A stretch of 64,000 nt of DNA, taken from Alphaproteobacteria bacterium. Lineage in GTDB: Bacteria > Pseudomonadota > Alphaproteobacteria > RF32 > CAG-239. This document shows, piece after piece, positions 940-54,962 of this stretch. Position 1 is the first letter of the stretch. Each line of letters opens with the position of its first letter. The stretch lies in the NCBI GenBank assembly GCA_016283295.1, contig JAEEMQ010000049.1:1811-65810 (forward strand), in the 5' to 3' direction. The translations under genes were made by a program, and so were the position numbers. Under the pieces are notes generated by a model. That model saw nothing but the letters and a program-made list of their open reading frames with translations, ran no database searches and was not told the origin of the DNA.

Positions 940-1536
940 ATGAAGAAAATACTTTTTATATTGCCGCTTTTATTGACTGCCTGCGGAACAATTTTCAGCG
1001 GCTCTACTCAAACAATAAGTTTTGATTCCAATGTAAAAGATGTTAAAATATATGTAAACGGACAACAAGTTTGCACTCAAGTTCCTTGTTCCATAGACGT
1101 TGACAGAGAATCGTCCCCGCTTATTGTTATGGCAAAGCGCGACGGATATAAAGACGGAATGGCAAATATTAAATCAAAAATAAATCCGACAGCTTGGTTC
1201 AATGTTTTATGGTTATACGGCTCGTTCAGTGCCGCGACAACCGATTATGCTATGGGTGGATTATGGAAATACACGCAAGATGGAGTTTACATCAACATGG
1301 AGCTGGAAAATATGAAACATGCAGAATTGCAAAAATTCCGCAAAAACTCACAAATCCGTGCTTTTAGTTTGTTTAATTATAAAGATTTACAAATGGAAGC
1401 TGCCCTGCATCAAAATGGTGAATACACCAAAGCCTTATCCGAATTAACAGGGTTAAGTGCCAAAGAATTGCATCCGACTATTATAGAGTCACGAACAGAA
1501 GTTTCGCTGGCACATAATCTAACCGGATTAAATTAA
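940..1536 (+). CDS. Lipoprotein, PEGA-like N-terminal domain
   Basis: Signal peptide with lipobox LLTAC. SD GGAGAG lies 6 nt upstream. The segment ISFDSNVKDVKIYVNGQQV..PCSIDV resembles a PEGA domain. Confidence 0.65.
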   Translation: MKKILFILPLLLTACGTIFSGSTQTISFDSNVKDVKIYVNGQQVCTQVPCSIDVDRESSPLIVMAKRDGYKDGMANIKSKINPTAWFNVLWLYGSFSAATTDYAMGGLWKYTQDGVYINMELENMKHAELQKFRKNSQIRAFSLFNYKDLQMEAALHQNGEYTKALSELTGLSAKELHPTIIESRTEVSLAHNLTGLN

Positions 1537-13093: not shown

Positions 13094-14227
13094 ATGAGAA
13101 TATTAAACAGATATATCGCCAAACAAATCATTGTCGGCTTTTTGCTGATTGCTTTGTCGCTTTTGGCCATGTTGTGGCTGACGCAATCGCTCCGGTTTGT
13201 GGAAATGGTTACGCGCCAAGGGCTTCCGGTTTATTTGTTTGTGCAAATGACTTCGCTTTTAATGCCGCGCATTTTCAACGTGTTGTCGCCGATTGCGCTG
13301 TTTGTCGCCGTTTTGTTTGTGTATAATCGGATGATTGCCGACCGCGAATTGGTAGTTATGCAATCTTCCGGCATCAGCCCGTGGAAAAACGCGCAGGCTC
13401 CGCTCGTGGTGGGTTTGTTGCTGTCTTTGTTCGGGATTTATGTGATGAATGTCGGTATTCCGCAAGCCGAACAAAAGTTTCGCGAATTGGAGTGGCGGGT
13501 CAAAAACAATCTGACGCAGGCGGTGTTCCGTGAAGGCGAGTTTACGACTCTCAGCAACGGCATTACGGTTTTTATCGATAAGCACGAAAACGACGGTTCG
13601 GTTACCGGCATTTTTGTCAGCGACGAAAGCAAGCCGGATATCAAAGTTACGTTGACGGCGGAAAAAGGCCGCATGATTCAAACCAAGAAAGGACCGCGAA
13701 TTTTATTTATTAACGGCGTACGCCAGGAGATGAACAAAAAAACCTTTAAGTTCAACATGTTGTCGTTCTCGCGCTATTCGGCGGATTTTAACAGCGGCAG
13801 CGGGGCCAAACGCAAAGAGCAGACCGTGCGCGAAAAAAGTTTTTCCGAATTGATAAATGCCGCCGACGATAAAACTTTGTCGCCGCAAGATGTACGCAAA
13901 TATGTGGTTGAGGGACATCGCCGGGTTTTGTATCCGTTTTTCAATATGGTTTTGGCGCTGATTGCCTGTACCGGTCTTTTAATCAGCAACTTCAACCGGC
14001 GCGGACAAACCAAAATTATTGCCGTTGAAATCGTTTGTATGATTTTGGTGGTCGGCAACGATTTGGCACTTACCAACCTGGCCGGGCGCTCGCTTTATTT
14101 TGTGCCGGCCCTTTACGCCAACTGTATTTTGCCGTTTTTGATTTGTCTTTATCTGTTGTTGTTTTATAACCCTTTCTACTTCTATCGCCGCGGTGCTGGT
14201 AAGGATTTGAAATATGCGGATAAATAA
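13094..14227 (+). CDS. lptF: LPS export ABC permease, LptF/LptG family (more LptF-like)
   Basis: Six-TM YjgP/YjgQ architecture with a periplasmic beta-jellyroll segment (GEFTTLSNGITVFIDK..). Lies immediately upstream of lptD. The F versus G assignment is uncertain. Confidence 0.7.
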   Translation: MRILNRYIAKQIIVGFLLIALSLLAMLWLTQSLRFVEMVTRQGLPVYLFVQMTSLLMPRIFNVLSPIALFVAVLFVYNRMIADRELVVMQSSGISPWKNAQAPLVVGLLLSLFGIYVMNVGIPQAEQKFRELEWRVKNNLTQAVFREGEFTTLSNGITVFIDKHENDGSVTGIFVSDESKPDIKVTLTAEKGRMIQTKKGPRILFINGVRQEMNKKTFKFNMLSFSRYSADFNSGSGAKRKEQTVREKSFSELINAADDKTLSPQDVRKYVVEGHRRVLYPFFNMVLALIACTGLLISNFNRRGQTKIIAVEIVCMILVVGNDLALTNLAGRSLYFVPALYANCILPFLICLYLLLFYNPFYFYRRGAGKDLKYADK

Positions 14228-16517
14228 ACTTGAATTTATGATGGTTTTAGCAATTTTACTGCTGTCGGGGCTGCCGGCATCGGCCGTAACCGAGGCGGGA
14301 GAAGTTATGCGGCAGGAAAAGAAAAATCCCGGCGCCACGTTATTTGTCACCAACGATATTACGAATATCGGCTCGATTACCGCCGACGAAACTTCGTCCG
14401 ACGAGGGTGATGAAGCCATAGATTTTTCCGCCAATGAAATGATTAATGACGACGAAACGCAAATCATCACCGCGCGCGGTAATGTCGAGGTTTTATATAA
14501 CGGTATGCGGATGACCACCGACAAAATCGTTTATGATCAAAATGCCGACACGCTGACGGCAATCGGTAACGTCAAAATGTATACGGCCGACGGTGCCGTA
14601 ATCGACAGCGACCTCGTTTCCTTATCGGATAATATGTCGGTCGGCGCCATGAATAACGTCAAGGTTTTGATGCGGGATAAATCGCACGTCACGGCCGATT
14701 ATTTCGTGAAAAAGAACAATCATACCAAAGTTATGCGTAATGCCACCTACACGGCTTGCGACATCTGCGAGGGGAAAAGTCCGTTATGGCATATCAGCGC
14801 CAAAAAAGTGCAGCATCAGGAAGACGATAAAAACGTGTATTATAATCACGCTCTGGTTTATTTTAAGTATGTTCCGTTCTTTTATACGCCGTTTTTGACT
14901 CACCCTGACCCTACGGTAAAGCGCCGCTCCGGTTTGTTAGCGCCGACCATCGGCAGTTCCAACTATTTGGGTGCTTATTTCCAACCGCGTTTCTTCTGGG
15001 CCGTAGATGATCAGACCAATGTTTTGTTTGCGCCTATTTATTCCTCCAAAAAAGATTTTGTGTGGGCCGGCAGTTTTTCGCATTATTTTTATAACTCATT
15101 CATAAATGTCAGCGGCTCATATTTGGAGGATAAATCCGGCAAAAACGACAGCCTTTCCAAACATCGCCCGAAACACCGCGGAAATATTTTTGCCGACGGT
15201 TTGACCGACATCAACGAAAATTGGCGCGTTCTGTATAATCTGAAATATGTTTCCGATTACATTTATCTCAAAGATATGGATTTGCAATATCAGGACGATG
15301 CGTGGCTTGTTTCCGATGTTAAGTTCGAGCGCTTTTCGGGGCGGGACTATGCTTCGATAGAGGCCTATTATTACAAAATTCTCAGTTATAACCTGCACCA
15401 ACGCAACGTACGGCAATTTGATGCGCTCGATAAGCGCAAGCCGATTGTCGCTCCGTTGATTGAAGCGGAATTTTATTCCGACCCGCTGCAATGGGGTTCT
15501 TATTTGAAAAACGACTTCAGTACCGCCTCGGTTTATCATCAAAACGGAGCGCAGACGCAACGAGTAACTTCCATCAACGCCTGGGAGCTGCCGCTTACCA
15601 CTTCCTTTGGCGATAAATATCGTTTCGTTACCTCGCTCAAATCGGATGCATACTATGTCAATCGCTACCAATACAGCAATCCGCAGACCTATACCGGCAC
15701 CACAGCGCGGTTCTTCCCGCAGGCCGGAGTGGAATGGCATTTGCCTTTTGTGCGGGCAACCTCAACTTCGCGACAGATTGTTGAGCCGGTAATCGTCGGC
15801 GTGGTTTCTCCGGACGGCGGCAATAAAGTCGAGAAAATCCCGAATGAAGACAGCGAAAACGTTTATTTGGATGATACCAACGTTTTGGATTTGGACCGCT
15901 ATGCCGGCTACGACCGCAACGATACGGGAAGCCGCGTAAGCTACGGTTTGCGTTGGAACTCTTACGGTAATTTCTTCGGCCGTACCTCCGCCTTTATTGC
16001 CCAAAGCTTTGAACGCAACCGCAACGCCAGTTTTATTCAGGGCCTGGATAATCAGGATGCAACGCATTTCAGCGATTTGGTCGGGCGCATCAATGCATCT
16101 CCGAACAAATATTTGGATTTAAACTATCGCTTCCGTCTTGATAAAAATAATTTAAACGCTAAATACAGCGAATTGGGGGCAAACATCGGTCCGGCGCTGT
16201 TAAAGCTCAACGTTTCGTACATCTTTTTGCAGGGCAATACTCACTACATCGACAGATATTCGGAACGTAAAGAGCTCTATACTTCGCTCAGTTCCGAAAT
16301 TACGGAAAATTGGAAAGTTTCCATCTATAATTTGGAGGATTTAACCAAACAACGCCGCGGGCGTTTGGAACACGGCGGCTCGGTCACTTATGACGACGAG
16401 TGTTTTACTTGGGATTTAACCTTCAGAAAATTAAATACGAGTAACCCGAACTTGGATAATGATTATGAGTTCGGTCTGACATTTTACCTGAAAACCGTGG
16501 GCGGTTTCGGTTCATAA
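14214..16517 (+). CDS. lptD: LPS assembly outer membrane protein LptD
   Basis: Signal peptide, an OstA-like N-terminal domain (YDQNADTLTAIGNVKM) and a large C-terminal barrel. Synteny with surA and rsmA. Confidence 0.9.
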   Translation: MRINKLEFMMVLAILLLSGLPASAVTEAGEVMRQEKKNPGATLFVTNDITNIGSITADETSSDEGDEAIDFSANEMINDDETQIITARGNVEVLYNGMRMTTDKIVYDQNADTLTAIGNVKMYTADGAVIDSDLVSLSDNMSVGAMNNVKVLMRDKSHVTADYFVKKNNHTKVMRNATYTACDICEGKSPLWHISAKKVQHQEDDKNVYYNHALVYFKYVPFFYTPFLTHPDPTVKRRSGLLAPTIGSSNYLGAYFQPRFFWAVDDQTNVLFAPIYSSKKDFVWAGSFSHYFYNSFINVSGSYLEDKSGKNDSLSKHRPKHRGNIFADGLTDINENWRVLYNLKYVSDYIYLKDMDLQYQDDAWLVSDVKFERFSGRDYASIEAYYYKILSYNLHQRNVRQFDALDKRKPIVAPLIEAEFYSDPLQWGSYLKNDFSTASVYHQNGAQTQRVTSINAWELPLTTSFGDKYRFVTSLKSDAYYVNRYQYSNPQTYTGTTARFFPQAGVEWHLPFVRATSTSRQIVEPVIVGVVSPDGGNKVEKIPNEDSENVYLDDTNVLDLDRYAGYDRNDTGSRVSYGLRWNSYGNFFGRTSAFIAQSFERNRNASFIQGLDNQDATHFSDLVGRINASPNKYLDLNYRFRLDKNNLNAKYSELGANIGPALLKLNVSYIFLQGNTHYIDRYSERKELYTSLSSEITENWKVSIYNLEDLTKQRRGRLEHGGSVTYDDECFTWDLTFRKLNTSNPNLDNDYEFGLTFYLKTVGGFGS

Positions 16518-16531
16518 AAATAGGAGAGAAA

Positions 16532-17731
16532 ATGAAAAAAACAATTATCTTTTTTGCAGTATTTTTTACCTGTATTTCCGTAGCGAAAGCAGAAGATGTC
16601 AACTTAAAAGAAATCGATGCGGAATCGCGGGCATCGCAACCGAGCACCAATTCCATCATGTTCCGCCGCAATGCCGAACAATATAATATGATGTCCGACG
16701 AGCAAAAAGAAGAAATAGACAAGCAGCGCGAGATTATGCGGCAGCGGACCGAAGAATATATCAAGCAACAGGAAGAAGCGGCCCGGCGCCAAGCGCAATA
16801 CGAAGCGCAAATGCGCGCGGCAGAAGAAGCGGAACGCCGCCGTCAACAGGCTCTGCGGCCGATTACCCTCTACGGCAACAAGCTCAAAATATTCGCGCTC
16901 GTGAACGGCGAAGTTATCTCGAGCAACGATATGCAAAGCCGCATCAATGCTTTTATTCTGACCACCGGCATTCCGTATAATGCCCAAACCAAAAAAATGA
17001 TTACCGACCGCGTTTTGCAGGGGGCGATTGATGAAAAAATCAAACTACAGGAAGCTAAAAAGAATAAAATCCGCGTAACTACGCACGAAATCAATAAAGC
17101 GATTGAGGCTTTTGAACAAGGTAACGGTCTGCCGGCCGGCGAGCTGCGTAAAATTTTGGCCGAAGCCAACGTCAGTATGAAGGTGTGGGCAACGCAAATC
17201 GAAGCCGATATTGCTTGGAAAAAACTCATCAACAGCAAGGCATACAGCTACGTTTCCGTCAGCGAATCCGAAATAAATCGCGCCATCGACGAGGTTAAAA
17301 AAGATATGTCGCAACACAAGAAAATGGTTTCGGAAATCGTCATCAGCAAAAAAGATGCCAAAGAAATCAACTCTTTGGTGGCAACGCTGCGCCAAGATCC
17401 GCGTTTTGAACTTTACGCTTCGCAATTTTCGCAAAGCCCGAGTGCGGCCAACGGCGGACGTTTGGGCTGGGTTACCAAAGGCAAATTGCCGGATGTTTTT
17501 GAAAAAGCGCTGGATAAAATGAAGGAAGGCGACGTTTCCAACCCGATTGCTTACGGCAACGATTATTATATTCTGAAACTCGATAAAATTTTTGACCCGC
17601 AACGCGACGCCAAATCTTTCCCGAGCAAAAAAGAAATCCGCGCCTATCTGCAAAATAAAAAGCTGGAAGAATTCTCCATAAAATATTTGCGTGATTTGCG
17701 CAACAAAGCCCTGATTGAAAAGAAGATATGA
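16532..17731 (+). CDS. surA: SurA-like periplasmic chaperone / parvulin PPIase
   Basis: Signal peptide and a parvulin segment (ANGGRLGWVTKGKLPDVFEKAL). Sits between lptD and rsmA. Confidence 0.8.
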   Translation: MKKTIIFFAVFFTCISVAKAEDVNLKEIDAESRASQPSTNSIMFRRNAEQYNMMSDEQKEEIDKQREIMRQRTEEYIKQQEEAARRQAQYEAQMRAAEEAERRRQQALRPITLYGNKLKIFALVNGEVISSNDMQSRINAFILTTGIPYNAQTKKMITDRVLQGAIDEKIKLQEAKKNKIRVTTHEINKAIEAFEQGNGLPAGELRKILAEANVSMKVWATQIEADIAWKKLINSKAYSYVSVSESEINRAIDEVKKDMSQHKKMVSEIVISKKDAKEINSLVATLRQDPRFELYASQFSQSPSAANGGRLGWVTKGKLPDVFEKALDKMKEGDVSNPIAYGNDYYILKLDKIFDPQRDAKSFPSKKEIRAYLQNKKLEEFSIKYLRDLRNKALIEKKI

Positions 17732-18561
17732 TAAACGAACTGCCAAGTCTGCGCGATACGGTCGAGCAATACGGTTTGATGGCTAAAAAATCTCTCGGCC
17801 AAAACTTTTTGCTGGATATGAACATTACCGACAAGATTATTCGTTGCTCGTTGGAAGCGCAGGGCAAAGCAGATTTTAAAAACGAAAATGTTTACGAAAT
17901 CGGGCCGGGGCCGGGCGGACTTACCCGCGCTATTTTGAAAGCGAATCCGCAAAAACTGACGGTTATCGAAATGGACAGCCGATGCATTGAAATTATGCAC
18001 GACATAAAAAAAATTGTCGGAGAGCAGTTGCAAATCGTGGAAGGCGATGCGTTGCAATATGACTTTACCGCCGACCGGAGCGCCGTTAAAAACATTGTCA
18101 GCAACCTGCCCTACAATATTTCCGTGCCGTTGTTGCTGAATTGGCTGAAAAATATGCAAAATTTTGCCAGCTTAACTCTGATGTTTCAAAAGGAAGTTGC
18201 CGAGCGCATCACGGCCGAGCCGAATAATAAAACTTATGGCCGGATATCGGTGATGGCGCAACTTACCTGCAAAATCAAAACGCTGTTCAATCTTAATCCG
18301 AATTGTTTTGTGCCGGCACCGAAAATATGGTCAACCGTGCTTTTGTTTGAGCCGTTGGCGACAATTCCTCCGGCTGACATATTGCAAAAAGTGGAAAAAC
18401 TGACCGAAGCGGCCTTCAATCAGCGGCGTAAAATGCTACGGCAGAGTTTGAAGTCCGTAGCGAATCTGCAACAAATTTGCGAACAGGCAAACATAGACCC
18501 GACCGTGCGCGCCGAAAATTTATCGCCGCAACAATATCTCAAATTAGCAGAATTGATCTAA
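17728..18561 (+). CDS. rsmA: 16S rRNA (adenine1518/1519-N6)-dimethyltransferase
   Basis: SLGQNFL and EIGPGPGGLT motifs. Confidence 0.92.
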   Translation: MINELPSLRDTVEQYGLMAKKSLGQNFLLDMNITDKIIRCSLEAQGKADFKNENVYEIGPGPGGLTRAILKANPQKLTVIEMDSRCIEIMHDIKKIVGEQLQIVEGDALQYDFTADRSAVKNIVSNLPYNISVPLLLNWLKNMQNFASLTLMFQKEVAERITAEPNNKTYGRISVMAQLTCKIKTLFNLNPNCFVPAPKIWSTVLLFEPLATIPPADILQKVEKLTEAAFNQRRKMLRQSLKSVANLQQICEQANIDPTVRAENLSPQQYLKLAELI

Positions 18562-18565
18562 TTTA

Positions 18566-19144
18566 TTACCAAATGTGGCACAAAAAGACGGCCCACATTC
18601 CGCACCAAAAGGCAAACATAAAGCACATAAAGGCACGGCTGTCCAAATTGCTGTCGGCGGCTTCATCGACAACATCGCCGTATTTGTTGGCCTCGGTAAC
18701 ACCGCGACCGCACAAAATCCAGCATAAAAACGAATAGTATACCAGGGAAGCAAACAACAAATAAAGCAATCCCGCGGTATGACCGAAATCCCATAAACCC
18801 AGCACCAGCAAAGCCAGTACCACCGCCGGCAAACACCACCATCCGGACAAAGATATGTCATGCAAACGGCGCACCGTTGCCGCGGTTGCCGGAAACAGGA
18901 AATACAGCGCGAAAATGTTGATGACTATTTTGGTGGCGTCAAAAAAGTTACCGCATAAAACCATCAACAAAAATATGATTAAGCTGACCGCTTGAAAAGC
19001 CCAAAAATCGTAGCGCGAAGCCCGACCTTTAAGCACAAACATCTGCATCATGGCGTTGTTCCAACGAGCAAAAATACCGGCTGACGCTTTTGCGGCCACC
19101 GCTTCCTGCTCCGTATTTTCCGTTGTATTTTCCATCTCAATCAT
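18566..19144 (-). CDS. DUF805 family membrane protein
   Basis: GRASRYDFW and the RRLHD motif with flanking TM helices. Confidence 0.75.
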   Translation of the reverse strand: MIEMENTTENTEQEAVAAKASAGIFARWNNAMMQMFVLKGRASRYDFWAFQAVSLIIFLLMVLCGNFFDATKIVINIFALYFLFPATAATVRRLHDISLSGWWCLPAVVLALLVLGLWDFGHTAGLLYLLFASLVYYSFLCWILCGRGVTEANKYGDVVDEAADSNLDSRAFMCFMFAFWCGMWAVFLCHIW

Positions 19145-19150
19145 ATCCGT

Positions 19151-19186
19151 AAAAAAAAACGCGATGCCTCCCGCTGTCGAGAGGCA
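19151..19186 (-). terminator. Probable terminator after tsf
   Basis: Stem TGCCTC/GAGGCA. A T9 run on the minus strand lies 5 nt after the stem. Confidence 0.45.
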
Positions 19187-19198
19187 CCGTTATCTTGA

Positions 19199-20122
19199 TT
19201 ATTTTGCCAACTGAGCCTGAACTTCGGCAGCAAAATCTTCTTCTTTTTTCTGTAAGCCGTCGCCGAGCTTAAAGAATACATAGTCCGTCAACTTAATGTC
19301 GGCGCCGCATTCTTTGGCCTTATCGGCAATAACGTCTTTAACTTTCTTATCCGGGTCCATAATGTAGTTTTGTTCTTCCAAAACAACTTCTTCATAGAAC
19401 TTGCGGATACGGCCGTCCACCATTTTTTCAATGATGGCTGCCGGTTTGCCGGAAGCAGCGGCCTGCTCGGCAAAAATAGATTTTTCGTGTTCTACCGCAG
19501 CCGGATCAACGCTTGCTACGTTCAAGGCAATCGGCTGAGCAGCGGCAACGTGCATTGCGATATGCTTACCCAAATCAGCCAACTGGGCTTTATCTGCCGT
19601 AGATTCCAATGCAACCAGTACCCCGATTTTACCCAAACCGGCGCGTGCCGCATTGTGAATGTAAGAGCAAACCAAACCGTTATTAACGCTGACAACTTTG
19701 GCGCGACGCAAATTCATGTTTTCGCCGATGCGGGCAACCATATCGGTCAAGCGCTCACCAAAAGTTTTACCGCTGGCATCGGCGGCATTTTTCATTGCTT
19801 CAACATCGCCGTTGTTAGCCAAGGCAACTTTGGCGGCATCTTCAACATAAGCCTGAAAGATATCGTTTTTGGCAACGAAGTCGGTTTCGGAGTTAACTTC
19901 AACCGCGGCACCTCTGTTGCCTTCAACATAAACCGCAACCAAACCTTCAGCGGCAATGCGGCTGGACTTTTTGGCGGCCGAGGCCAAACCTTTTTTGCGC
20001 AACCAATCAACGGCCGTTTCCATATTTCCGTTTGCTTCAACCAAAGCCTTTTTGCAATCAAGCATACCGGCGCCGGTTGTTTCTCTCAATTCTTTTACCA
20101 TAGCGGCTGTAATATCTGCCAT
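19199..20122 (-). CDS. tsf: Elongation factor Ts
   Basis: N-terminal [24 protein letters not shown]. Lies downstream of rpsB. Confidence 0.95.
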
Positions 20123-40132: not shown

Positions 40133-40822
40133 ATGCGTTTGATTTGTTATCTTGTATTAGTTGCCGCTTGCTCGGTGTTTAATGCTTCCGCGCAATCTTT
40201 TTCCAGCGGTTCGGGTATTGCGAGCGGTTCGGATAAAGCAACCGCGGCAACCGCAGACACCGCCGATACGGCGGCGGCCGACGCTGCAGCAGATGCCGCA
40301 AAGCCGAAGGATGCACCGATAATCGGCATTCCGGCCTATACCGAATCCAATGATGTTGCCTCCAAACCTGATGTGGTGGTAAACATCAGCGGTGACGAGC
40401 AAAAGGTGCAAGAACCGGTATATGATAACAGCGAGGGCAAAGTTGTCAGTTTCAAGATTGTCAACGGCAAGCTCGTGCACGATGACGAACGCAAAATTCT
40501 GGTTTCGTATGACGATTTTTCGGTCAGCCGCGGTATGGATAATCTGGTTCGTTGCAAAATGCGTATTTACGTATTGAACGATATGACCGAACGTCTCAAC
40601 AGTTTCGGCATCAAGCTGATATGGCCGGAAATCACCACCGCCATCAACCTGGTGAAGGTTAATCCGGGAGTTAGAACCTATCGCGACGTTATGCTTTTGG
40701 GCGACGGTTGTTTCTCGATGGATAAAAATCCGACGATTGAGGTTAATCGTTGCCGAGTTAAAGGCAAAACCGAAGAACAATGTGCCAATGCCGTCATGTG
40801 GTATAAAAAACAGGCAAAATAG
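40133..40822 (+). CDS. Secreted Cys-patterned protein, paralogue B
   Basis: Signal peptide MRLICYLVLVAACSVFNASA. Ala/Asp/Thr-rich linker. Conserved core shared with 39302..40111. Confidence 0.6.
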   Translation: MRLICYLVLVAACSVFNASAQSFSSGSGIASGSDKATAATADTADTAAADAAADAAKPKDAPIIGIPAYTESNDVASKPDVVVNISGDEQKVQEPVYDNSEGKVVSFKIVNGKLVHDDERKILVSYDDFSVSRGMDNLVRCKMRIYVLNDMTERLNSFGIKLIWPEITTAINLVKVNPGVRTYRDVMLLGDGCFSMDKNPTIEVNRCRVKGKTEEQCANAVMWYKKQAK

Positions 40823-40845
40823 ATTTTATAAATACTTTCCTCCGG

Positions 40846-40883
40846 CAAGGGCTTTCGTGAAAATCGAAGGCCCTTGTTTTTTT
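40846..40883 (+). terminator. Intrinsic terminator
   Basis: CAAGGGC - loop - GCCCTTG followed by TTTTTTT. Confidence 0.7.
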
Positions 40884-40904
40884 CTTGCCAATTTTGCAAA
40901 AAAA

Positions 40905-40920
40905 ATATATAATATAAGTG
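40905..40920 (+). repeat. Left arm of an imperfect inverted repeat bounding the islet
   Basis: ATATATAATATAAGTG equals the reverse complement of 45296..45313 except for a 2-nt TA indel. The sequence is low complexity. Confidence 0.4.
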
Positions 40921-40926
40921 TTACAA

Positions 40927-41064
40927 ATTAGGGATTTTATTTGCGATTATTAAATTATTCTTTTCATTGTTGTTATTTCTGCTTTCCGAAACTTTATGTT
41001 TTGGTTGGTTGATAATTTCAATATTTGAGGGAGTGGTTTGTTAAGCGCAAATAAATCCCTTAAA
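40927..41064. repeat. Inverted repeat pair flanking about 100 bp upstream of the 81-aa ORF
   Basis: ATTAGGGATTTTATTTGCG (40927..40945) against CGCAAATAAATCCCTTAAA (41046..41064), imperfect. Confidence 0.45.
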
Positions 41065-41075
41065 TTATTGGAACT

Positions 41076-41321
41076 ATGGCAACAATATTCTTTTTAGCCT
41101 TCGTACTCGCCTGCATTTTAGGTGTCAGATATGTTTGGCAGAATCACCGGGAAAAGCGTATAGTGAAAATACCGTTGACTATCATCGGCTTATATTTCAT
41201 ATACAAATTTCTCGTCTGGTTATCATGTATTATATCATCAATATTCGGTGGCGGAACCGTCACGGTAATTGTTATTATAATACTGGTAATTGTAGCATAC
41301 GGAATTTGGGATGATATGTAA
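41076..41321 (+). CDS. Small membrane protein (81 aa)
   Basis: Three hydrophobic segments. AT-rich, with non-host codon choices. Followed by a strong terminator. Confidence 0.5.
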   Translation: MATIFFLAFVLACILGVRYVWQNHREKRIVKIPLTIIGLYFIYKFLVWLSCIISSIFGGGTVTVIVIIILVIVAYGIWDDM

Positions 41322-41345
41322 TCATTTCAGATTTCAAAACTGCGG

Positions 41346-41389
41346 ACGTTCGGTATATGAAAGGAATTTCATAAACCGAACGTTTTTTT
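41346..41389 (+). terminator. Intrinsic terminator
   Basis: ACGTTCGGT ... ACCGAACGT with an inner TATGAAA/TTTCATA stem, followed by TTTTTTT. Confidence 0.75.
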
Positions 41390-41411
41390 ATGCAAAAAAA
41401 CACACGTATTT

Positions 41412-41456
41412 AAAAAAGCGAACAGCGTCTCTCCGGTTAGGGTAGAGGCGCTGTTC
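41412..41456 (-). terminator. Intrinsic terminator after the 302-aa gene
   Basis: GAACAGCG ... CGCTGTTC. A T6 run follows on the minus strand. Confidence 0.65.
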
Positions 41457-41476
41457 TGTATGGTGAACGTTGAGAA

Positions 41477-42385
41477 TCACTTAGAGGGGCTCTGGTAGGG
41501 CTTCATATCGTGGCGAAGGTTCCACACCTCTGCCTCGGTATTATAGCCGGCGAACTTCATGCCCGGGTGGTTATACTTCTTGTGCTTATTGAAGCGGAAG
41601 CTAACACCGGCATAAAGCTTTACCTCCTGGTAAAACTTATTGGTATTGAGCAGAATGTTCTGCTGCAAACCGTAAGATACACCAGCAAAGAGACCCCACG
41701 GTGAAAATGCCTTGTGCCAATAGGCCTCGGCAAACACGTAGCCGCCGGAAGTGAACTCGCGGATGTCCAAATCGCTCCTAGTCGTGGTATGGGTAGTCGT
41801 TGACCCATCGGGGTTCACCGTCTTACCAGACCATTCATACGTTTCGTTATCAAGGAACTGGGAGAGCTGGAAAGTTCCAGCAATACCCAACTTGATACCG
41901 GCGTGATGATTAAGGAACTGAATCGGCTTCCAGTACGCACGGAACTCCGCACGCTCCTGGAGGAATACAGACACGTCGTCGCTCGCAACATCGGGACGAG
42001 CACGCTGGAAGATAAAACGACCATCGATACCGCCACGACGAGCTTCCCATCCAGCGCCAACACCACCGCCAAGGACCTTATGGTCCGCAAACCAACCACC
42101 GACAGCAAACGCGTTGATGTCGTAGCCATGATTATCCTCCGTATAGAGGATCAACGGCTTCTGGTTGTTGCCAGCCAAGGTCTTAATCTCATCCTGGTGC
42201 GCTCCCTTATAGCGGGTAGCGTCCTCGTCGTTGAGAATTGTTACCTTGTCCTGGTTGCCGAACTCGGGGTTTGAATTGGCACTCATCTCGGGGGTAAGAC
42301 CTCCGAAATTGCTCTCGTCCCAAACCTGAGCGTTAACGGTTGCGGTTGCGCAGCACAGAGCGGCTGCTATGATAAACTTTTTCAT
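41477..42385 (-). CDS. Signal-peptide protein, probable outer membrane beta-barrel (Bacteroidota-like)
   Basis: MKKFIIAAALCCATATVNAQ signal. Alternating aromatic and Gly-rich strands (GVSYGL, LYAGVSFRF). No SD. Confidence 0.55.
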   Translation of the reverse strand: MKKFIIAAALCCATATVNAQVWDESNFGGLTPEMSANSNPEFGNQDKVTILNDEDATRYKGAHQDEIKTLAGNNQKPLILYTEDNHGYDINAFAVGGWFADHKVLGGGVGAGWEARRGGIDGRFIFQRARPDVASDDVSVFLQERAEFRAYWKPIQFLNHHAGIKLGIAGTFQLSQFLDNETYEWSGKTVNPDGSTTTHTTTRSDLDIREFTSGGYVFAEAYWHKAFSPWGLFAGVSYGLQQNILLNTNKFYQEVKLYAGVSFRFNKHKKYNHPGMKFAGYNTEAEVWNLRHDMKPYQSPSK

Positions 42386-42626
42386 TGTAGTAATTGTTTG
42401 AAAATGAATAATTTGTGTTGTCTCTCGAGGTTACCGACTCGCAAGGTCATACGGCATAGCCGCTCTATCCCCTTATATGCCGACCGGCACACTCGGAAAA
42501 TAATTATGACTTTTGCAAGAAGGCGAACCTCGAGACATCAAACACTTAAAAAAAATTACATATCAATGGGGCTGGATATGCACGGAACCCGTCCGCGCGC
42601 TTCGACCCCATTGCGGGGAAGAAGGG

Positions 42627-44912
42627 TTATTTCCAGCTACCAAGATACGACCCGGAGTAAGTGTCGGTAGCGGTTAAGCGACCGTCATTAACCTTAAGGT
42701 CGTAGCGAGAGGTCTGAGTTGAGCAATGCCCGTCAACCATATGTCCTTCGTCCCAGTTCTGAGACATTGCAATCATATAGTCTTGGTTAGCACGCTCGGT
42801 GTTGCCACGTGACCAAGTCATCTGAGTATACTGGTCAGAAGCCACAGTATTAATCCAGACCCCGTCAACGCAGGTACCTGAATTGTAGCTATGGTCTGAA
42901 GTGTACTCAAAGTACTCGAAGTTCCAATCAGGAGACGAGTACGACTGTACTACCACGGGCAGAACACCCTTCTCAAAGTGCAACGACCAGATATAAACGA
43001 AGCCGTTGTGCTTAGCGTTATTGCTAACGGTCTGCTTCACTTCAAGAAGTTTTCCCCAAGGCTTGGGGAAGAAAGTCTCTTCCTCTGGTACTACCACTTT
43101 CACCTTGATGGTTCCGGGAGCAGTGCTGGTCTTTATATTGGAACCCCAAACGTAACGGAGTACGTCGGAGTAAGAATATACAGTATATCCGTTGTTCTCC
43201 ACACCGGCCGACAGAGCGTCAGCATTCGATGCGCTAAGAGTACGCGACTCAAATGAGAACGGGTTGTCGTTGTAGATGACCTTAAAGCCATTGGCCTCAC
43301 GAGAAGTCCAATGATTCTTCTGGGTTGAACCTAACAACGTAACCACGGACTGCAAGTCGTAGTACTCACGTACCCAGCTTGCCTTTGCACCCTTCTGCTC
43401 CTCCGAGTGGTTCTCAGTATTGGAGAGAGATACAGTCACGTTAGAAGTGCTGTAAGTCTTATCCTCCTCCTCTGAAGACCAGTTGGTATCGCAGTTTAAG
43501 GAACGAGAATCCTTGAACTGGAAAGGAATGCGCTCAACATGGCCATCGGACCAGTTGATAACGTAAACCAAATTCCAGATAACCTGGTTATCATCGATAT
43601 CCTCGGTGCAGTTGGACTTATCCCAGCCCTGGGAGGTGATATGGGCGTTTTCCACCAAAAGGAACACACTTTCAGCAACGTCCTGAGCGTAGCCCAGATA
43701 CGAAGTGCCGATTGCGTTGTTCAGACGGCGAGTAGTATACCCATTTCGACCTTCTGCGTCGTTAACGATGGTGCTGCGCTCAGCAACCTCCGGAGCAATG
43801 AAATCGAAGTTAGCCTTAACACCAAACTGGTTGGAGTATTCAGCCTTCTCGTGGTAGAACTTGTAATCGGTGTCAACCGGATTCAAGTCACCGTCATTGT
43901 TCAAGCGAGCAGAGAACATGTCAGTTTTGCCACTAATGGTAAAGTTACCATCGGTGCGAACTTGAGAGGCATTGCCGTTCTGCCAGGGATTGTTATACCT
44001 CCAAGTGTAAAGAAAGTTCTTTACAATCTTGTCATATTCCTCCTTAGCAGTCCACTTGCGCTGCAGAATGGTAGACTCAGTTGAACGGTGCTTAGAACCG
44101 TCCTTCATAATCCACTCAATTTCCACATCGCAGCGCTCCTCAGTCTCGCTGATGGGGACTCTGTTCTCCGAAACCTTTTTAGCGTCAACGATATCGTTGA
44201 CGTCCATCTGATAGACACGGATGGTATCACGCAACTCAATCTCAGCCCCGTTCATCTCATAACCGATAATCTCGTAGGGTACGCCCCACACAAATTCACG
44301 ACAGACAGAATCTGCCACGAACTCGTCGCCGCGGGTACGATAATTAGTCGTGCCAGGCAAACGATTAATCGCTTTGAGATACTTCTTACCAATCTTGATG
44401 TACGGCAGTTTGTAAGTCTTACCGTTCAGCGTATACTCGATACGCTCATCGGCATTGTTTGAATAAACGATGTTGCCGTCCTCTACCTGAGAGGTGGTCT
44501 TAACAGCGTCCTCAAACACCTTACGGTTGTCCGAAGATGATTTTGTAGAAGTCACAGGGTCAGAGTGTGAAGTGCGCTCCAAAGAATAAGCAAGAGCTAC
44601 ATCTTTGGCTGCTGCGTATTTGTCATGCTCGTGAGAGCAAGACACACGCGCACTACCCTTATCGGAAAGGCCCAAATCGGAACCGTCCTTAACCACCCAA
44701 TTAATGTCAGCCTCGTTGCCGCGGTTGTCCACGGTATAGCTAAAGACATAATCAGGATTGATTTCGACGGGGTCATCCGGCTTTACGGGGCCCTCCGTAT
44801 CTTCCGACTGAGTACGGAAATCGGTTAATTTTTCGCAAGAAGCGAACCCGATGATTGCTACCAAGGCAAGCACAAAAAGGCCTGCGAGGTTTAATTTCTT
44901 ACTTCCCTTCAT
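42627..44912 (-). CDS. Large lipoprotein (761 aa), Bacteroidota-like
   Basis: MKGSKKLNLAGLFVLALVAIIGFASC lipobox. A-rich leader without SD. Periodic [VI]-x-W motif about every 190 aa. Confidence 0.65.
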   Translation of the reverse strand: MKGSKKLNLAGLFVLALVAIIGFASCEKLTDFRTQSEDTEGPVKPDDPVEINPDYVFSYTVDNRGNEADINWVVKDGSDLGLSDKGSARVSCSHEHDKYAAAKDVALAYSLERTSHSDPVTSTKSSSDNRKVFEDAVKTTSQVEDGNIVYSNNADERIEYTLNGKTYKLPYIKIGKKYLKAINRLPGTTNYRTRGDEFVADSVCREFVWGVPYEIIGYEMNGAEIELRDTIRVYQMDVNDIVDAKKVSENRVPISETEERCDVEIEWIMKDGSKHRSTESTILQRKWTAKEEYDKIVKNFLYTWRYNNPWQNGNASQVRTDGNFTISGKTDMFSARLNNDGDLNPVDTDYKFYHEKAEYSNQFGVKANFDFIAPEVAERSTIVNDAEGRNGYTTRRLNNAIGTSYLGYAQDVAESVFLLVENAHITSQGWDKSNCTEDIDDNQVIWNLVYVINWSDGHVERIPFQFKDSRSLNCDTNWSSEEEDKTYSTSNVTVSLSNTENHSEEQKGAKASWVREYYDLQSVVTLLGSTQKNHWTSREANGFKVIYNDNPFSFESRTLSASNADALSAGVENNGYTVYSYSDVLRYVWGSNIKTSTAPGTIKVKVVVPEEETFFPKPWGKLLEVKQTVSNNAKHNGFVYIWSLHFEKGVLPVVVQSYSSPDWNFEYFEYTSDHSYNSGTCVDGVWINTVASDQYTQMTWSRGNTERANQDYMIAMSQNWDEGHMVDGHCSTQTSRYDLKVNDGRLTATDTYSGSYLGSWK

Positions 44913-45295
44913 ATTTTGTAATTTTTTTTTGTTTTTGTATTCTTGAAACGGTTCATCTCACTAAAGGAACACTCAACTCGTGAGAAATTTCCTTTGTCAT
45001 CACTATGACGGAGAGCGTTTTACGTGTGTTACAGCTGAAAACCATACTGCATTACACAGGACTCCGTCATCATTAATGGCGAAGTGATATATAGAACTGT
45101 CAATTTCCATACAACAAAACCAATGAAAACGTATATTAAGTGATTTTTACGTTCTCTATAATTGTAGGTATACTAATTGACAATGATAATTCATAAGCAT
45201 TATTAACATAGCACGTTTTTTCGGGCTTTGCAACAAAAAAATGCATACTTTTGCAAAAATTTCGACAAATGGCGAAAATATTGCTGAATCGGACA

Positions 45296-45313
45296 CACTT
45301 ATATATTATATAT
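45296..45313 (-). repeat. Right arm of the imperfect inverted repeat bounding the islet
   Basis: CACTTATATATTATATAT; see 40905..40920. Confidence 0.4.
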
Positions 45314-45348
45314 GAATCTGCCGCGTTTTTTTGCGGGGAAGAACAAGC

Positions 45349-45490
45349 CTCGTCATTACGAGGAAGCCGGAACGGCTGACGTGGTAATCTCATACGACGC
45401 CGTGCAACCTCAGGCCAAACAATACTGCCGCCGCAAAGCAAGGTATTGAGATCCTCACGTCGGCACGCCGTGCCTCCTCAGGATGACGAG
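45349..45490. repeat. 142-bp composite palindrome made of two inverted copies of the dispersed repeat unit
   Basis: 45349..45391 (CTCGTCATTACGAGGAAG..GACGTGGTAATCTC) and its inverted copy 45448..45490 (GAGATCCTCACGTC..CCTCCTCAGGATGACGAG). Same family as 24..60. Confidence 0.65.
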
Positions 45491-45541
45491 TATGATTCTA
45501 TCCGGCTCGCAATGTCGCACCATTCCGCGGAGTCGCGACAC

Positions 45542-45568
45542 AAAAAAAGGAGCCCCAAAGGAGCTCCT
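45542..45568 (-). terminator. Terminator after the pilin-like gene
   Basis: AGGAGC/GCTCCT stem followed by a T7 run on the minus strand. Confidence 0.55.
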
Positions 45569-45597
45569 CAATGACTTTTTTATGCTAAGCATGCATA

Positions 45598-46272
45598 TCA
45601 GTAATATTTCCAAGCCAATTCGTTGGTGGTATCTGCAGTACAAGCGTTGGCAGCCCAAGCAACGGACATCGGCATTTTATTGAAGCAAGACAAAGCTTTA
45701 CCAGCCTCACCTTTTGATTCGCAAGCATCATATACTTGCGATTTCAAAGTTGCGGTGTTGTTGATGGAGAATGCAATCAAACCGGAACCGGAAGAAGCAT
45801 CCCAGTTTTGCGAAGCCAAGTCAACACAAGCTTCCTTCGGAATACCGCCGAATACGATGATGAATGCTTTGTGAGCTTTGGTAGCGTCGTTTTGACCGCT
45901 ACCGTTTTCAATGGCAAATCTGGAAGCGGAGTACAAATTAACAGAACCGCCGTAAGCGTTGTTCCAATCAGCCCAGGTCATATCATCACCGGCCGTACCG
46001 CCCAGCATTTCATCCGGGAAAACGTGTGCTTTATACATAAGTGCCGGAACGTTAGTGGTAGAATCCGTTGCCAAGTCCTTATAGTTCTTTTGCGAACCGA
46101 ACAGAATACGGACGTTTGCCACAATGTGGGAAACTTGGTCGATGGTTTTGTTTGCTCTGAATTTGGCCATAGCTTTTGAGTAACCGGCAATACCGCCCAC
46201 CGACAAAACGCCGATAATCGCCAACACGCCGAGCATTTCAATCATGGAACGACCTTTTTCGTTTATTTTCAT
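45598..46272 (-). CDS. Type IV pilin / pseudopilin-like protein
   Basis: Prepilin leader MKINEKG, then RSMIEMLGVLAIIGVLSVGGIAG with Glu at +5. AAGGAG SD 7 nt upstream of the ATG at 46272. Codon choices look like those of a highly expressed gene. Confidence 0.75.
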   Translation of the reverse strand: MKINEKGRSMIEMLGVLAIIGVLSVGGIAGYSKAMAKFRANKTIDQVSHIVANVRILFGSQKNYKDLATDSTTNVPALMYKAHVFPDEMLGGTAGDDMTWADWNNAYGGSVNLYSASRFAIENGSGQNDATKAHKAFIIVFGGIPKEACVDLASQNWDASSGSGLIAFSINNTATLKSQVYDACESKGEAGKALSCFNKMPMSVAWAANACTADTTNELAWKYY

Positions 46273-50624: not shown

Positions 50625-51023
50625 ATGACCTATTTTTTAACTTTTGCAGAACTCTGTACGGTGATTGCATTTATGGTTTTCGGCACCGTTTTACGCAACA
50701 ACAATTACGAAAGCATCCCTTATAAGGTTTGTGATCGTCTGATTTGCTACGCAATGATGCTTTACGTTGCCGCCGCTTTTTTGACGGCGTTGCCTCTTGC
50801 CGGTGTGGTCTGGACCCACCAGAATGCCGCGATTATCGCCGCCCATACCGCGTATCATTTCGTAAGCGCAATGTTTCTGCTGTTTGTGCTTGTCAAGTTC
50901 GCTGACGTTCCGTTCAGCTTCGCTAAGCAGTATCTTCTGGCCCGCGGCTCGCTCTATTTTGCCTTTGTGTTTGAGGCCTTGGCGCTGTGCGCGTTTATGG
51001 TTTGCTGCGTGCTGTATTTTTAA
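50625..51023 (+). CDS. Hypothetical membrane protein (132 aa)
   Basis: Four hydrophobic segments. Upstream TTGACA-17-TATACC promoter. A terminator follows. Confidence 0.45.
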   Translation: MTYFLTFAELCTVIAFMVFGTVLRNNNYESIPYKVCDRLICYAMMLYVAAAFLTALPLAGVVWTHQNAAIIAAHTAYHFVSAMFLLFVLVKFADVPFSFAKQYLLARGSLYFAFVFEALALCAFMVCCVLYF

Positions 51024-53870: not shown

Positions 53871-54962
53871 ATGGAAAACATTTTTTCCGTTACCACCGAC
53901 GGCAAATGGTGGAAGGGAGAGATCAGCATGCGCTACAATCTCTTGACGCTGGTCAAGATTGTCGGTGCGCTGTTGCTCCTTGCGGCAATCGGCTTCGGCC
54001 TTTATTGGTTCGGAGTCGCAGTGTTAACCCTATTGCAGGCACTCTGGTATGGCATCTGCTGGATTGCTACCGGTATTTGGAGCGGCCTTTGCTGGCTGGC
54101 TTCCGGTATCTGGAGCATTCTTTGCTGGCTTGCCTCCCAGTGGATGTGGCTGTTAGGTCTGCTCTTAGCAGCGCTTATCGGCTGGCTCTTAACCAAGGTT
54201 GACTGGAAGTCATCCGAGGCAAAGTCAGACAGCAAGCGTTCATGGAGTTGGATCTGGTGGCTGCTCGGTGCAATTTTGCTGCTCTTGCTGGCTCTTATGC
54301 TGGTGAAGGGTTGCAATAATTCAACCGAATCCGCTGCGGAACCCGCACCGATGTCTGCGCCTGTCGTGATTACGGCTGAGCAGTTTGACGAGGCTTTCGA
54401 CAAGGTGGTCATTGCCCGCGCCTATCTGGACGGTGTTCAGAACGGTGTCGGCAAAAAGGTCGCTCTTGTCGGATTGAAGTTCGTCGACGGACGCCCTGTA
54501 ACCGATATGATTTTCCAAGGCCGCACTTATGATGAGGCTAAGGAAGTCATCGCCGCCGATTGGCGCGAGCTGGTTACCGCGAACGTTCATGTTCAGCTTT
54601 CCGAGCAGGAGCTAGTGGCAATCACTTTGTATGCAATGCGCAACGGTAAGTACGGTTTCTTGAAGTCTGACTTCTTGAAGGCTGTCAACGCCGGTGATCG
54701 CAACGCTGCAATGGAATTGAACACGGCTAAGGGCACCAAGCGCCAACTCCGTGACGAGGGTAAGCAGTACCTCTGGGTACTCCGCAACCTTTGGAACGGC
54801 AACATCTCGGTTGATGACCTCATCGACATGCCAATGTTTTCTTATAAGAAAATTGCGGTAGAGCAGATGTATGACAACGGCAAGCCGGTGTTTAACAGCA
54901 CACTGTCCGAGCGTCTGAACAAGGGTGCTAACCGCACTCCGCGTGAGGCCCTCGAACTTTAG
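53871..54962 (+). CDS. Membrane-anchored lysozyme-like (GH24-fold) protein with Trp/Cys-rich repeat segment
   Basis: The C-terminal LSEQELVAITLYAMRNGKYGFLKSDFLKAVNAGDRNAA matches the GH24 helical lobe pattern. The N-terminus is multi-TM. An alternative start at 53928 has an AAGGGAGAG SD. Confidence 0.6.
   Translation: MENIFSVTTDGKWWKGEISMRYNLLTLVKIVGALLLLAAIGFGLYWFGVAVLTLLQALWYGICWIATGIWSGLCWLASGIWSILCWLASQWMWLLGLLLAALIGWLLTKVDWKSSEAKSDSKRSWSWIWWLLGAILLLLLALMLVKGCNNSTESAAEPAPMSAPVVITAEQFDEAFDKVVIARAYLDGVQNGVGKKVALVGLKFVDGRPVTDMIFQGRTYDEAKEVIAADWRELVTANVHVQLSEQELVAITLYAMRNGKYGFLKSDFLKAVNAGDRNAAMELNTAKGTKRQLRDEGKQYLWVLRNLWNGNISVDDLIDMPMFSYKKIAVEQMYDNGKPVFNSTLSERLNKGANRTPREALEL
54039..54137 (+). 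repeat. Three tandem in-frame 33-bp repeats inside the CDS
   Basis: GCACTCTGGTATGGCATCTGCTGGATTGCTACC / GGTATTTGGAGCGGCCTTTGCTGGCTGGCTTCC / GGTATCTGGAGCATTCTTTGCTGGCTTGCCTCC. These encode ALWYGICWIAT / GIWSGLCWLAS / GIWSILCWLAS. Confidence 0.8.

Follow-up and report, generated by a model that had tools for sequence, protein, structure and literature searches.

A probable hypervariable lipoprotein and outer-membrane barrel locus with a stable codon dialect in uncultured rumen Alphaproteobacteria

The sequence considered here is a stretch of 64,000 nucleotides from an alphaproteobacterial genome (assembly GCA_016283295.1, contig JAEEMQ010000049.1, positions 1,811 to 65,810), hereafter the window, whose own numbering is used for all its features. 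Among ordinary core genes it contains an operon on the reverse strand that codes for a 761-amino acid (aa) lipoprotein, lp761 (42627-44912), and a predicted 302-aa outer-membrane protein, bb302 (41477-42385). The cassette is fixed next to the gene of the CCA-adding enzyme in every related genome found, and its coding sequences (CDSs) are far older than the surrounding backbone; it is probably a hypervariable surface adhesin or antigen locus, a self-contained operon of about 3.9 kb which recombination maintains in a clade of uncultured rumen Alphaproteobacteria. Its protein families lack annotation, its leader and intergenic segment are candidate new RNA elements, and it keeps a stable codon dialect for which neither high expression nor a recent import from Bacteroidota accounts.

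An initial annotation, made from the sequence alone, had described the region 40890-45340 as a Bacteroidota-style islet, due either to acquisition across phyla or to a chimeric assembly, and had assigned to it the two genes above and the open reading frame (ORF) of an 81-aa membrane protein (41076-41321, forward strand). All three ORFs were found where they had been placed. A discrete unit does exist, but it extends from about 41412 to about 45313; the sequence between 40890 and 41076 is backbone, 86-90% identical in relatives.

Distribution and genomic position

A word-indexed homologue search yielded 16 clusters for lp761 and 9 for bb302, and all the named ones belong to metagenome-assembled genomes (MAGs) deposited as 'Alphaproteobacteria bacterium'. 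Looking up contigs and scanning GTDB species, with one genome for each, placed the pair in at least five species, all represented by rumen MAGs: RUG13901 (locus L001), MAG-R073 (L007), ruminal_MAG_381 (L006), RGIG3536 (L003) and RUG10918 (L009); it is also present on a JGI contig (L011). A pattern scan with the leader DNA retrieved one JGI metagenome contig, carrying the lp761 homologue P0008, and pattern scans of IMG/VR gave no match.

The junctions share one order, in which the CCA-adding enzyme, sometimes followed by a pilin, precedes the lipoprotein, the barrel and then the side with the small ORF, h229 and UDG. The CCA-enzyme/IalB/RlmN block adjoins the pair in each of five species, and in three of them the h229/h281/UDG/TPR/PtsP block does so as well. 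Both junctions thus recur independently, in at least five assemblies produced by different groups with different assemblers and including contigs of 60-126 kb. An assembly chimera of Bacteroidota and alphaproteobacterial reads, in favour of which the compositional contrast alone could be adduced, is therefore ruled out.

Allelic divergence and reassortment

Between the window and RUG13901, flanking genes have 81-99% identity at the aa level and a synonymous divergence (dS) of 0.29-0.77, whereas lp761 has 74% identity with a dS of 2.2 and bb302 42% with a dS of 2.0. In the comparison with MAG-R073 the flanks are 90-97% identical (dS 0.44-0.74) and it is the other protein that is better conserved: lp761 is 59% identical (dS 2.2) and bb302 85% (dS 1.36). 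Synonymous sites of the cassette are 3-7 times more diverged than those of the backbone, and identities among bb302 alleles span 40-94%. The discordant identities of the two proteins, together with this excess of synonymous divergence, indicate that the lp761 and bb302 CDSs represent allelic lineages of great age which were reassorted, and not merely fast-evolving proteins; the ratio of nonsynonymous to synonymous divergence (dN/dS) is 0.07-0.30 throughout the comparisons, and 0.09-0.16 for lp761.

Unlike the CDSs, the non-coding parts of the cassette follow the backbone: the 241-nt spacer between the genes is 85-93% identical to that of closer relatives and 66-68% to that of more distant ones, and leaders still have 76-87% identity where the CDSs of the genomes compared have only 55-74%. 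The locus shows features of a replacement-type hypervariable surface locus, namely a fixed position, an allele dS of about 2 against 0.3-0.8 in the flanks, discordant identities and conserved non-coding segments.

Several short-read contigs of 3.7-3.9 kb hold just the two genes; one end falls within the conserved leader and the other immediately ahead of the conserved terminator. De Bruijn graphs break in this way when several alleles share their surroundings in one sample, and the break points suggest that such mixtures of alleles may exist. A circular mini-element was also considered, and was rejected as the ends of the 3.7-kb contigs do not overlap. The orientation of the cassette varies too: RGIG3536 and RUG10918 have flanks that are 93% identical and colinear, yet the 4.1 kb between them that extend from leader to terminator lie in opposite orientation. 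In RUG10918 the inverted cassette is bracketed by a separate 147-nt inverted repeat of 95% identity (9331-9477 and 13547-13693 of that contig), and ruminal_MAG_381 has the same cassette orientation.

These data bear directly on the proposal of a recent cross-phylum transfer of an islet bounded by a short inverted repeat. The composition is indeed atypical and an inverted repeat of 16-18 nt is present at the edges; however, the left arm coincides with the -10 box in the conserved promoter of the 81-aa ORF, in backbone sequence. Furthermore, orthologues with the same codon style occupy this locus in related Alphaproteobacteria, all six related genomes are occupied with no empty site found among them, and the alleles stand at saturated dS. 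A domain search of the region found no transposase or integrase, as had been noted initially, and the sole tRNA gene in the window, for tRNA-Ser (463-553), is far from it. With no mobility gene, a repeat arm that is a promoter element and an occupied site in all relatives, the locus does not qualify as an insertion sequence, a transposon or an integrative island. The Bacteroidota -7 motif TAnnTTTG is absent upstream of both genes (coding strand of 44913-45345 and 42386-42626), lp761 lacks the Bacteroidota export signal, and the correlation of relative synonymous codon usage (RSCU) with a Bacteroidota gene is only 0.25. A recent transfer of this kind is thus very improbable. What stands of the foreign-module idea is that the composition is not that of the host and stays so, and that the unit behaves as a discrete module of recombination, though not by way of the inverted repeat.

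Transcription signals and structured RNAs

The operon would start from a sigma-70-like promoter (TTGCAA, 17 nt, TATGTT) predicted at 45205-45233 on the reverse strand, in a block kept in six loci. Its score, 8/12, is under the cut-off of the scanner, and the assignment is drawn from conservation: the -10 hexamer reads TAnnTT in all alleles, with positions 1, 2 and 6 invariant. Upstream of it lies an AT-rich conserved block (45234-45313, reverse strand) containing the palindrome TTTTTGCAAAAG and the right arm of the inverted repeat (45296-45313). The portion AATATTTTCGCCATTTGTC..GCATTTTTTTGTTGCAAAG can be aligned in all six loci, while the distal ATATATAATATATAAGTG part is limited to the window, RUG13901 and MAG-R073.

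A 10-nt palindrome, TTTTGCAAAA, occurs in the window at 5960, 7069, 28048, 40892 and 45249, and two of these sites mark the two ends of the region, one in each promoter region. The corresponding 9-mer has 16 strand matches in the window, against 4.8 +/- 2.6 expected. Since three unrelated sites also carry the palindrome, no claim is made that it is a cassette-specific operator.

The 5' leader of about 285 nt (44913-45198, reverse strand) comprises a conserved long hairpin (44998-45078; 34 pairs in the RNAalifold prediction, with compensatory changes in 5), the conserved sequence GAGATGAACCG (44949-44959) and an A-rich tract. A further block of the leader (45107-45132) could pair with the start region of bb302, 2.7 kb downstream, to which it is complementary, and not with the start of lp761 itself. 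The duplex has a computed energy of -14 to -19 kcal/mol, with z values from -2.6 to -6.4 with respect to shuffled sequences, in 10 of 10 loci tested; a comparable complementary block was seen by eye in the very distant pair of locus L020. An anti-start-region sequence in the leader of the small ORF (40961-40977) is not kept in relatives and was dropped.

After the stop codon of lp761, the 241-nt intergenic segment (42386-42626, reverse strand) is predicted to form two hairpins (42580-42618) and then a multi-helix junction (42429-42529), which leaves the bb302 start region (42383-42415) unstructured and A-rich. Across the 42 predicted pairs, 97.6% of the alignment cells form standard pairs, and two-sided pair changes number 13, as compared with 5.5 +/- 1.5 in shuffled alignments (0/500 reach the observed value) and 0-4 in slid controls. 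Leader and intergenic segment are hence two candidate new structured RNA elements, with solid covariation for one of them. In Rfam 15, searched with 40700-45700 at E<=1, no family matched either element, and the sole match was a sub-threshold small RNA on the h229 terminator. The operon is closed by a predicted intrinsic terminator (41412-41457, reverse strand), whose GAACAGCG..CGCTGTTC stem leads into a T-run and which is conserved, with compensatory differences, in all six loci.

The lipoprotein lp761 and its family

The N-terminus of lp761, MKGSKKLNLAGLFVLALVAIIGFASC, has the positive region, the hydrophobic region and the lipobox (FASC) of a lipoprotein processed by signal peptidase II. 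The lipobox recognized in the initial annotation is real: Cys26 is invariant in 12 homologues, and position -3 is occupied by F, V, L or M across alleles. In Bacteroidota, export of lipoproteins to the surface is directed by a C-X-K-(D/E)2-X signal just after the +1 Cys (PMC5080379). The corresponding sequence of lp761 is C-E-K-L-T-D, with K at +3 and no acidic pair; other alleles read CGDLSD, CEYFNED and CGEYRAD, and some distant members, with SCDNEE and SCTTEDHE, are closer to the export signal.

The structural model of lp761 is all-beta and multi-domain, with a predicted local distance difference test (pLDDT) value of 70 overall and above 90 for residues 423-610. The protein has no match in Pfam, NCBIfam or PHROG, and none in the PDB by Foldseek at E<=0.001. 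Four modules of about 190 aa had been proposed from a recurrent I/V-x-W motif; the strands with this motif do recur, but the segments are not detectably homologous by hhalign (probability <=2%). Residues 423-605 correspond to a repeat unit in longer relatives.

An exhaustive profile search enlarged the family to 140 clusters; what they have in common is the last 160 aa (residues 600-761 of lp761); a word-indexed search with the alignment of this module returned 3 fragments only. The module is found in three settings. The first is represented by lipoproteins of 750-1700 aa. The second includes secreted proteins with BspA-type leucine-rich repeats (LRR_5), dockerin and adhesin-like repeats, and the gene of one of these LRR_5 proteins, P0055, lies on contig L021, which carries the Bacteroidota-type promoter motif TAnnTTTG twice. 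In the third setting, proteins of 1800-2250 aa without signal peptides contain the module one to three times, and outside it they have matches to crAss-like tail proteins, to a PHROG of virion-structural proteins and to a CBM5/12. This company of LRR/dockerin and virion proteins suggests that the C-terminal 160 aa of lp761 may be a binding module. Moreover, the occurrence of the module both in an LRR protein from a Bacteroidota-type contig and in crAss-like virion proteins makes an old exchange of this module across phyla plausible.

The barrel protein bb302

bb302 has a signal peptide, an N-terminal stretch of about 60 aa that is disordered or helical, a small beta-barrel and a short helical tail at the C-terminus. 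In the AlphaFold2 model (pLDDT 69.5, predicted template-modelling score, pTM, 0.60), the barrel resembles NspA (1p4t), the OmpA transmembrane domain (1bxw/1qjp), OmpW and Ail/OmpX in Foldseek searches of the PDB, with probability 1.0 and a template-modelling (TM) score of 0.57-0.72 normalized on the target. bb302 is thus modelled as an 8-stranded outer-membrane barrel of the OmpA/OmpX/NspA type, in agreement with the earlier description of it as barrel-like and bearing a signal peptide. Pfam (E<=0.01) and NCBIfam (E<=0.001) gave no match.

The predicted fold and size of the core, and the signal peptide, are those of NspA, the OmpA transmembrane domain, OmpX, Ail and OmpW; nevertheless, identity with NspA, OmpA, OmpX and OmpW is only 9-14%, and the additional N-terminal region and a 38-aa tail have no counterpart. 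As to the aromatic beta-signal at the very C-terminus of barrels of this class, the last strand of bb302 ends with GVSFRF at residue 264 and 38 more residues follow. Furthermore, a long conserved Thr-rich extracellular hairpin (NPDGSTTT.TTTRSD) distinguishes bb302 from the small 8-stranded barrels.

Codon usage and translation signals

The codon skew that had been perceived by eye is strong when computed. AAG makes up 0.74 of the Lys codons of lp761 and 0.95 of those of bb302, and GAG 0.76 and 0.81 of the Glu codons, against about 0.25 for both in host genes. Cassette and host differ also for CAG (0.94 vs 0.44), CCC among Pro codons (0.47 vs 0.02), GCT (0.46 vs 0.15) and CGT (0.56 vs 0.25); CCC, the rarest codon of the host, is 15-fold enriched. 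The per-codon log-likelihood under host usage corresponds to z values of -3.95 and -3.67 for the two genes.

Initiation signals are unusual as well. The A-rich leaders without a Shine-Dalgarno site described initially were confirmed by the energies of the duplex with the anti-Shine-Dalgarno sequence, +2.2 and +2.4 kcal/mol for the cassette genes and among the weakest of 55 genes, with a host median of -5.4; a Shine-Dalgarno core is present in about 60% of host genes. Such A-rich start regions are of the Bacteroidota type and are kept in all alleles, though the trait is not exclusive to Bacteroidota. At the usual position of a Shine-Dalgarno site, 4-9 nt 5' of the lp761 ATG (44916-44925), all alleles have ATTACA, except that of RGIG3536 (ATCACA). 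It is preceded by a run of 4 to 9 A residues, depending on the allele, and in one allele class an ATTAC variant occurs before the bb302 ATG.

The orthologues at the locus have the same properties, with A-rich leaders, AAG at 0.78-0.86 and GAG at 0.67-0.77, the genes around them being at about 0.2. The codon style is shared also by family lipoproteins of 1307-1311 aa, encoded at another locus (Suf/L31/EF-P) in alphaproteobacterial MAGs of lower GC content: AAG is 0.85, GAG 0.75, CAG 0.93 and the GC content of third positions (GC3) 0.59, in surroundings with a GC3 of 0.3-0.45, and their leaders, judged by eye, are A-rich and without a Shine-Dalgarno site. Since the two orthologues of this kind differ from each other at a dS of 1.17, in line with the background of 1.06-1.73, their sequences look vertically inherited yet unameliorated. 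RSCU correlations within the family are 0.63-0.80 across hosts, against 0.31 to the host and 0.45 to rpsB and tsf. The dialect, consisting of AAG/GAG/CAG, CCC and GCT/CGT, is thus a stable property of the family across hosts and loci, and not the fading mark of a recent import. As alleles at saturated synonymous divergence share it, either selection keeps it or the alleles reside mostly in an unsampled reservoir.

The dialect might be thought to reflect high expression, with abundant envelope proteins using the translationally optimal codons of the host. GCT, GGT, TCT, CAG, AAC, ATC, TAC and TGC are increased and GCG, TCG and CGG decreased, as they are in rpsB and tsf with respect to bulk genes, and the RSCU correlation is higher with rpsB and tsf (0.45) than with bulk genes (0.31). 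However, in its largest deviations the cassette is opposite to rpsB plus tsf, namely for GAG (0.77/0.04), AAG (0.80/0.31), CCC (0.47/0.00), GTT (0.35/0.71) and TTG (0.29/0.64), the same contrast is seen with enolase, L31 and EF-P in relatives, and no Shine-Dalgarno site is present; on balance, high expression is an improbable cause of the dialect.

A more serious alternative, though still an unlikely one, is the ancient capture of a surface module from rumen Bacteroidota or from the crAss-like phage pool, which then diversified in the clade, so that the composition would be a slowly eroding remnant. Several features would fit, such as the sharing of the C-terminal module with the LRR_5 protein of the TAnnTTTG contig and with crAss-like virion proteins, the A-rich leaders without Shine-Dalgarno sites, the acidic residues after the lipobox Cys in many family members, and the partly ameliorated appearance of the member at locus L022. 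Conversely, homologue search, contig look-ups and the scan of GTDB species traced no full-length homologue and no barrel partner to Bacteroidota, TAnnTTTG is missing from the cassette, and the dialect is undiminished (AAG about 0.8) across saturated synonymous divergence and hosts of different GC content. Most of the 140 family clusters are without taxonomic assignment, and look-up named none of 10 distant clusters. The Bacteroidota-style codon usage itself finds no support: RSCU correlations to the single Bacteroidota gene at hand are 0.20-0.43 across the family and about 0.25 for the cassette, a reference of one gene being too small to settle the matter.

Most likely, dialect and leaders without Shine-Dalgarno sites are kept by selection on the translation of these messages, or because alleles are continually exchanged within one common pool. 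A more specific and speculative proposal is that a dialect of the family's own under selection, these leaders and the complementarity between leader and barrel gene form a dedicated layer of translational control of the hypervariable surface operon, which could be gated by tRNA isoacceptors or their modification states; an analogue of such codon-gated expression would be the bldA/TTA control in Streptomyces.

In the same window, a 363-aa multi-transmembrane protein with a weak Phage_lysozyme match (53871-54962, forward strand) also shares the dialect, with AAG at 0.87, GAG at 0.67, a z of -4.85 and an RSCU correlation of 0.66 with lp761; it too is without a Shine-Dalgarno site, and the colinearity with RUG13901 stops at about 53672, just upstream.

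Interpretation as a hypervariable surface locus

The reading that we consider probable is that of an operon composed, in order, of promoter, structured leader, lp761, structured intergenic RNA, bb302 and terminator, in which the barrel would anchor the lipoprotein in the outer membrane or act as its partner, and the C-terminal module of lp761 may recognize a ligand carried by a different surface. The many lineages of alleles could be kept by frequency-dependent selection exerted by phages, grazers or competitors, and alleles would move between lineages by homologous recombination in the conserved non-coding segments and in the flanking core genes.

Some observations weigh against this reading. 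The dN/dS values below 0.3 indicate purifying selection overall, and synonymous saturation blocks site tests for diversifying selection. In principle, short-read assembly could have produced the inversion between the 147-nt repeats as an artefact, though ruminal_MAG_381 shows the same orientation. The 1711-aa family member at locus L022 has a nearly host-like codon usage (correlation 0.78), so the dialect is not obligatory for the family and erosion can happen. Finally, lp761 as a whole is modelled poorly (pTM 0.33), and its Foldseek matches to viral models, with E down to 8e-8, have a TM of about 0.06 and were not counted as fold evidence.

Uncultured rumen Alphaproteobacteria are almost unstudied, and this locus is a candidate for a major surface adhesin or antigen, made up of two protein families without annotation or solved relative. 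A domain common to phage virion proteins and LRR/dockerin surface proteins suggests that, in the rumen, it may serve to bind cells to one another or to glycans. In addition, the locus offers a clean natural example of CDS exchange within conserved RNA segments, and a composition that looks like recent transfer, yet is stable over saturating divergence, calls for caution in methods of island detection.

Borders and neighbouring genes

The neighbouring genes are ordinary alphaproteobacterial core genes, coding for PtsP, a TPR protein, UDG, the CCA-adding enzyme, IalB, RlmN, GyrB, LptD/F/G, SurA, RpsB and EF-Ts. At the left border, the host terminator of the initial annotation was found as a hairpin at 40844-40878, closing the upstream host gene. 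It is followed by a convergent unit on the forward strand (40885-41383), consisting of a sigma-70-like promoter (TTGCCA-17-TATAAT, 40885-40913, score 11/12), a 155-nt leader, the 81-aa ORF and a terminator hairpin (41346-41383). Promoter and leader are well kept in four genomes, with 86-90% identity in RUG13901, MAG-R073 and the JGI contig, and the gene runs towards the terminator of the cassette; its protein has 91% identity in the JGI contig and 30% in MAG-R073, with conserved ends (..GIWDD[ML]).

On the other side, between the cassette and the pilin terminator and outside the operon, a palindromic repeat (45336-45500) resembles repetitive extragenic palindromes or miniature inverted-repeat transposable elements; it is present in one copy in the window, is missing from RUG13901 and occurs several times in the JGI contig (3082-3152, 7624-7709, 8655-8723). 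The adjacent gene for a type IV bundlin/PilS-like pilin (45598-46272, reverse strand) is itself hypervariable, with 93%, 62% and 42% aa identity in relatives; its dS between the window and MAG-R073 is 1.2, with flanks at about 0.5, and in some relatives it sits elsewhere in the locus.

In RGIG3536 (13964-19328) and RUG10918 (3794-9110) the cassette abuts a protein of 1390-1407 aa with a pilin-like N-terminus and its 368-aa partner, which have host-type codon usage and no Pfam match and adjoin the Suf operon. Elsewhere in the window, a 132-aa membrane protein whose gene has no Shine-Dalgarno site (50625-51023, forward strand) is 55-73% identical in relatives, with neighbours at 92-99%, and is a further small variable spot of the backbone. 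A 198-aa ORF next to the tRNA-Ser gene (940-1536, forward strand) has a GC content of 0.375, no Pfam match and the worst codon fit among the genes treated as host (log-likelihood -1.219 per codon).

Comparison with known systems

Flexible (metagenomic) genomic islands of the replacement type encode surface structures thought to be phage targets (PMC3782348, PMC3909814). Like the islands for O-antigen and glycosylation, the cassette has a fixed site between core genes, alleles older than the backbone, a shared atypical composition, probable homologous recombination in the flanks, predicted surface products and presumed pressure from phages or predators. Conversely, it consists of two protein genes and not of a biosynthetic cluster, and its peculiarity is a codon dialect at a GC content close to that of the host rather than low GC. 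Moreover, the conserved recombination segments of the cassette include internal structured RNAs, and thus each CDS can be replaced separately.

In layout, the gene pair recalls TbpB/TbpA and HpuA/HpuB of Neisseria and the Slam-dependent surface lipoproteins of Proteobacteria, where the genes for a lipoprotein and a barrel are adjacent and the lipoprotein is variable, all-beta and of surface type. In those systems, however, the barrel is a 22-stranded TonB-dependent receptor or the 14-stranded Slam (DUF560), whereas bb302 is a small predicted 8-stranded barrel with no DUF560 or TonB_dep_Rec match; neither sequence nor Pfam relates the pair to the Slam/TbpB systems, and gene order and regulatory RNAs are unrelated. 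The SusD/SusC pairs and the export-signal lipoproteins of Bacteroidota are similar in the acidic residues near the +1 Cys, in the A-rich starts without a Shine-Dalgarno site and in the pairing with a barrel, but the cassette differs in having no export signal, no TAnnTTTG and a barrel that is not SusC-like, and the traced hosts of the pair are all Alphaproteobacteria. The resemblance to both the proteobacterial lipoprotein-receptor pairs and the SusD/C-type pairs is thus one of layout only.

Finally, the C-terminal module links lp761 to the receptor-binding and tail proteins of crAss-like phages, as it occurs in proteins of 1800-2250 aa whose C-termini match crAss tail proteins and a virion-structural PHROG. 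Unlike these, lp761 is encoded on the chromosome and is a lipoprotein with a Sec/SPII signal; its vicinity contains no phage genes, and pattern searches of IMG/VR gave no match.

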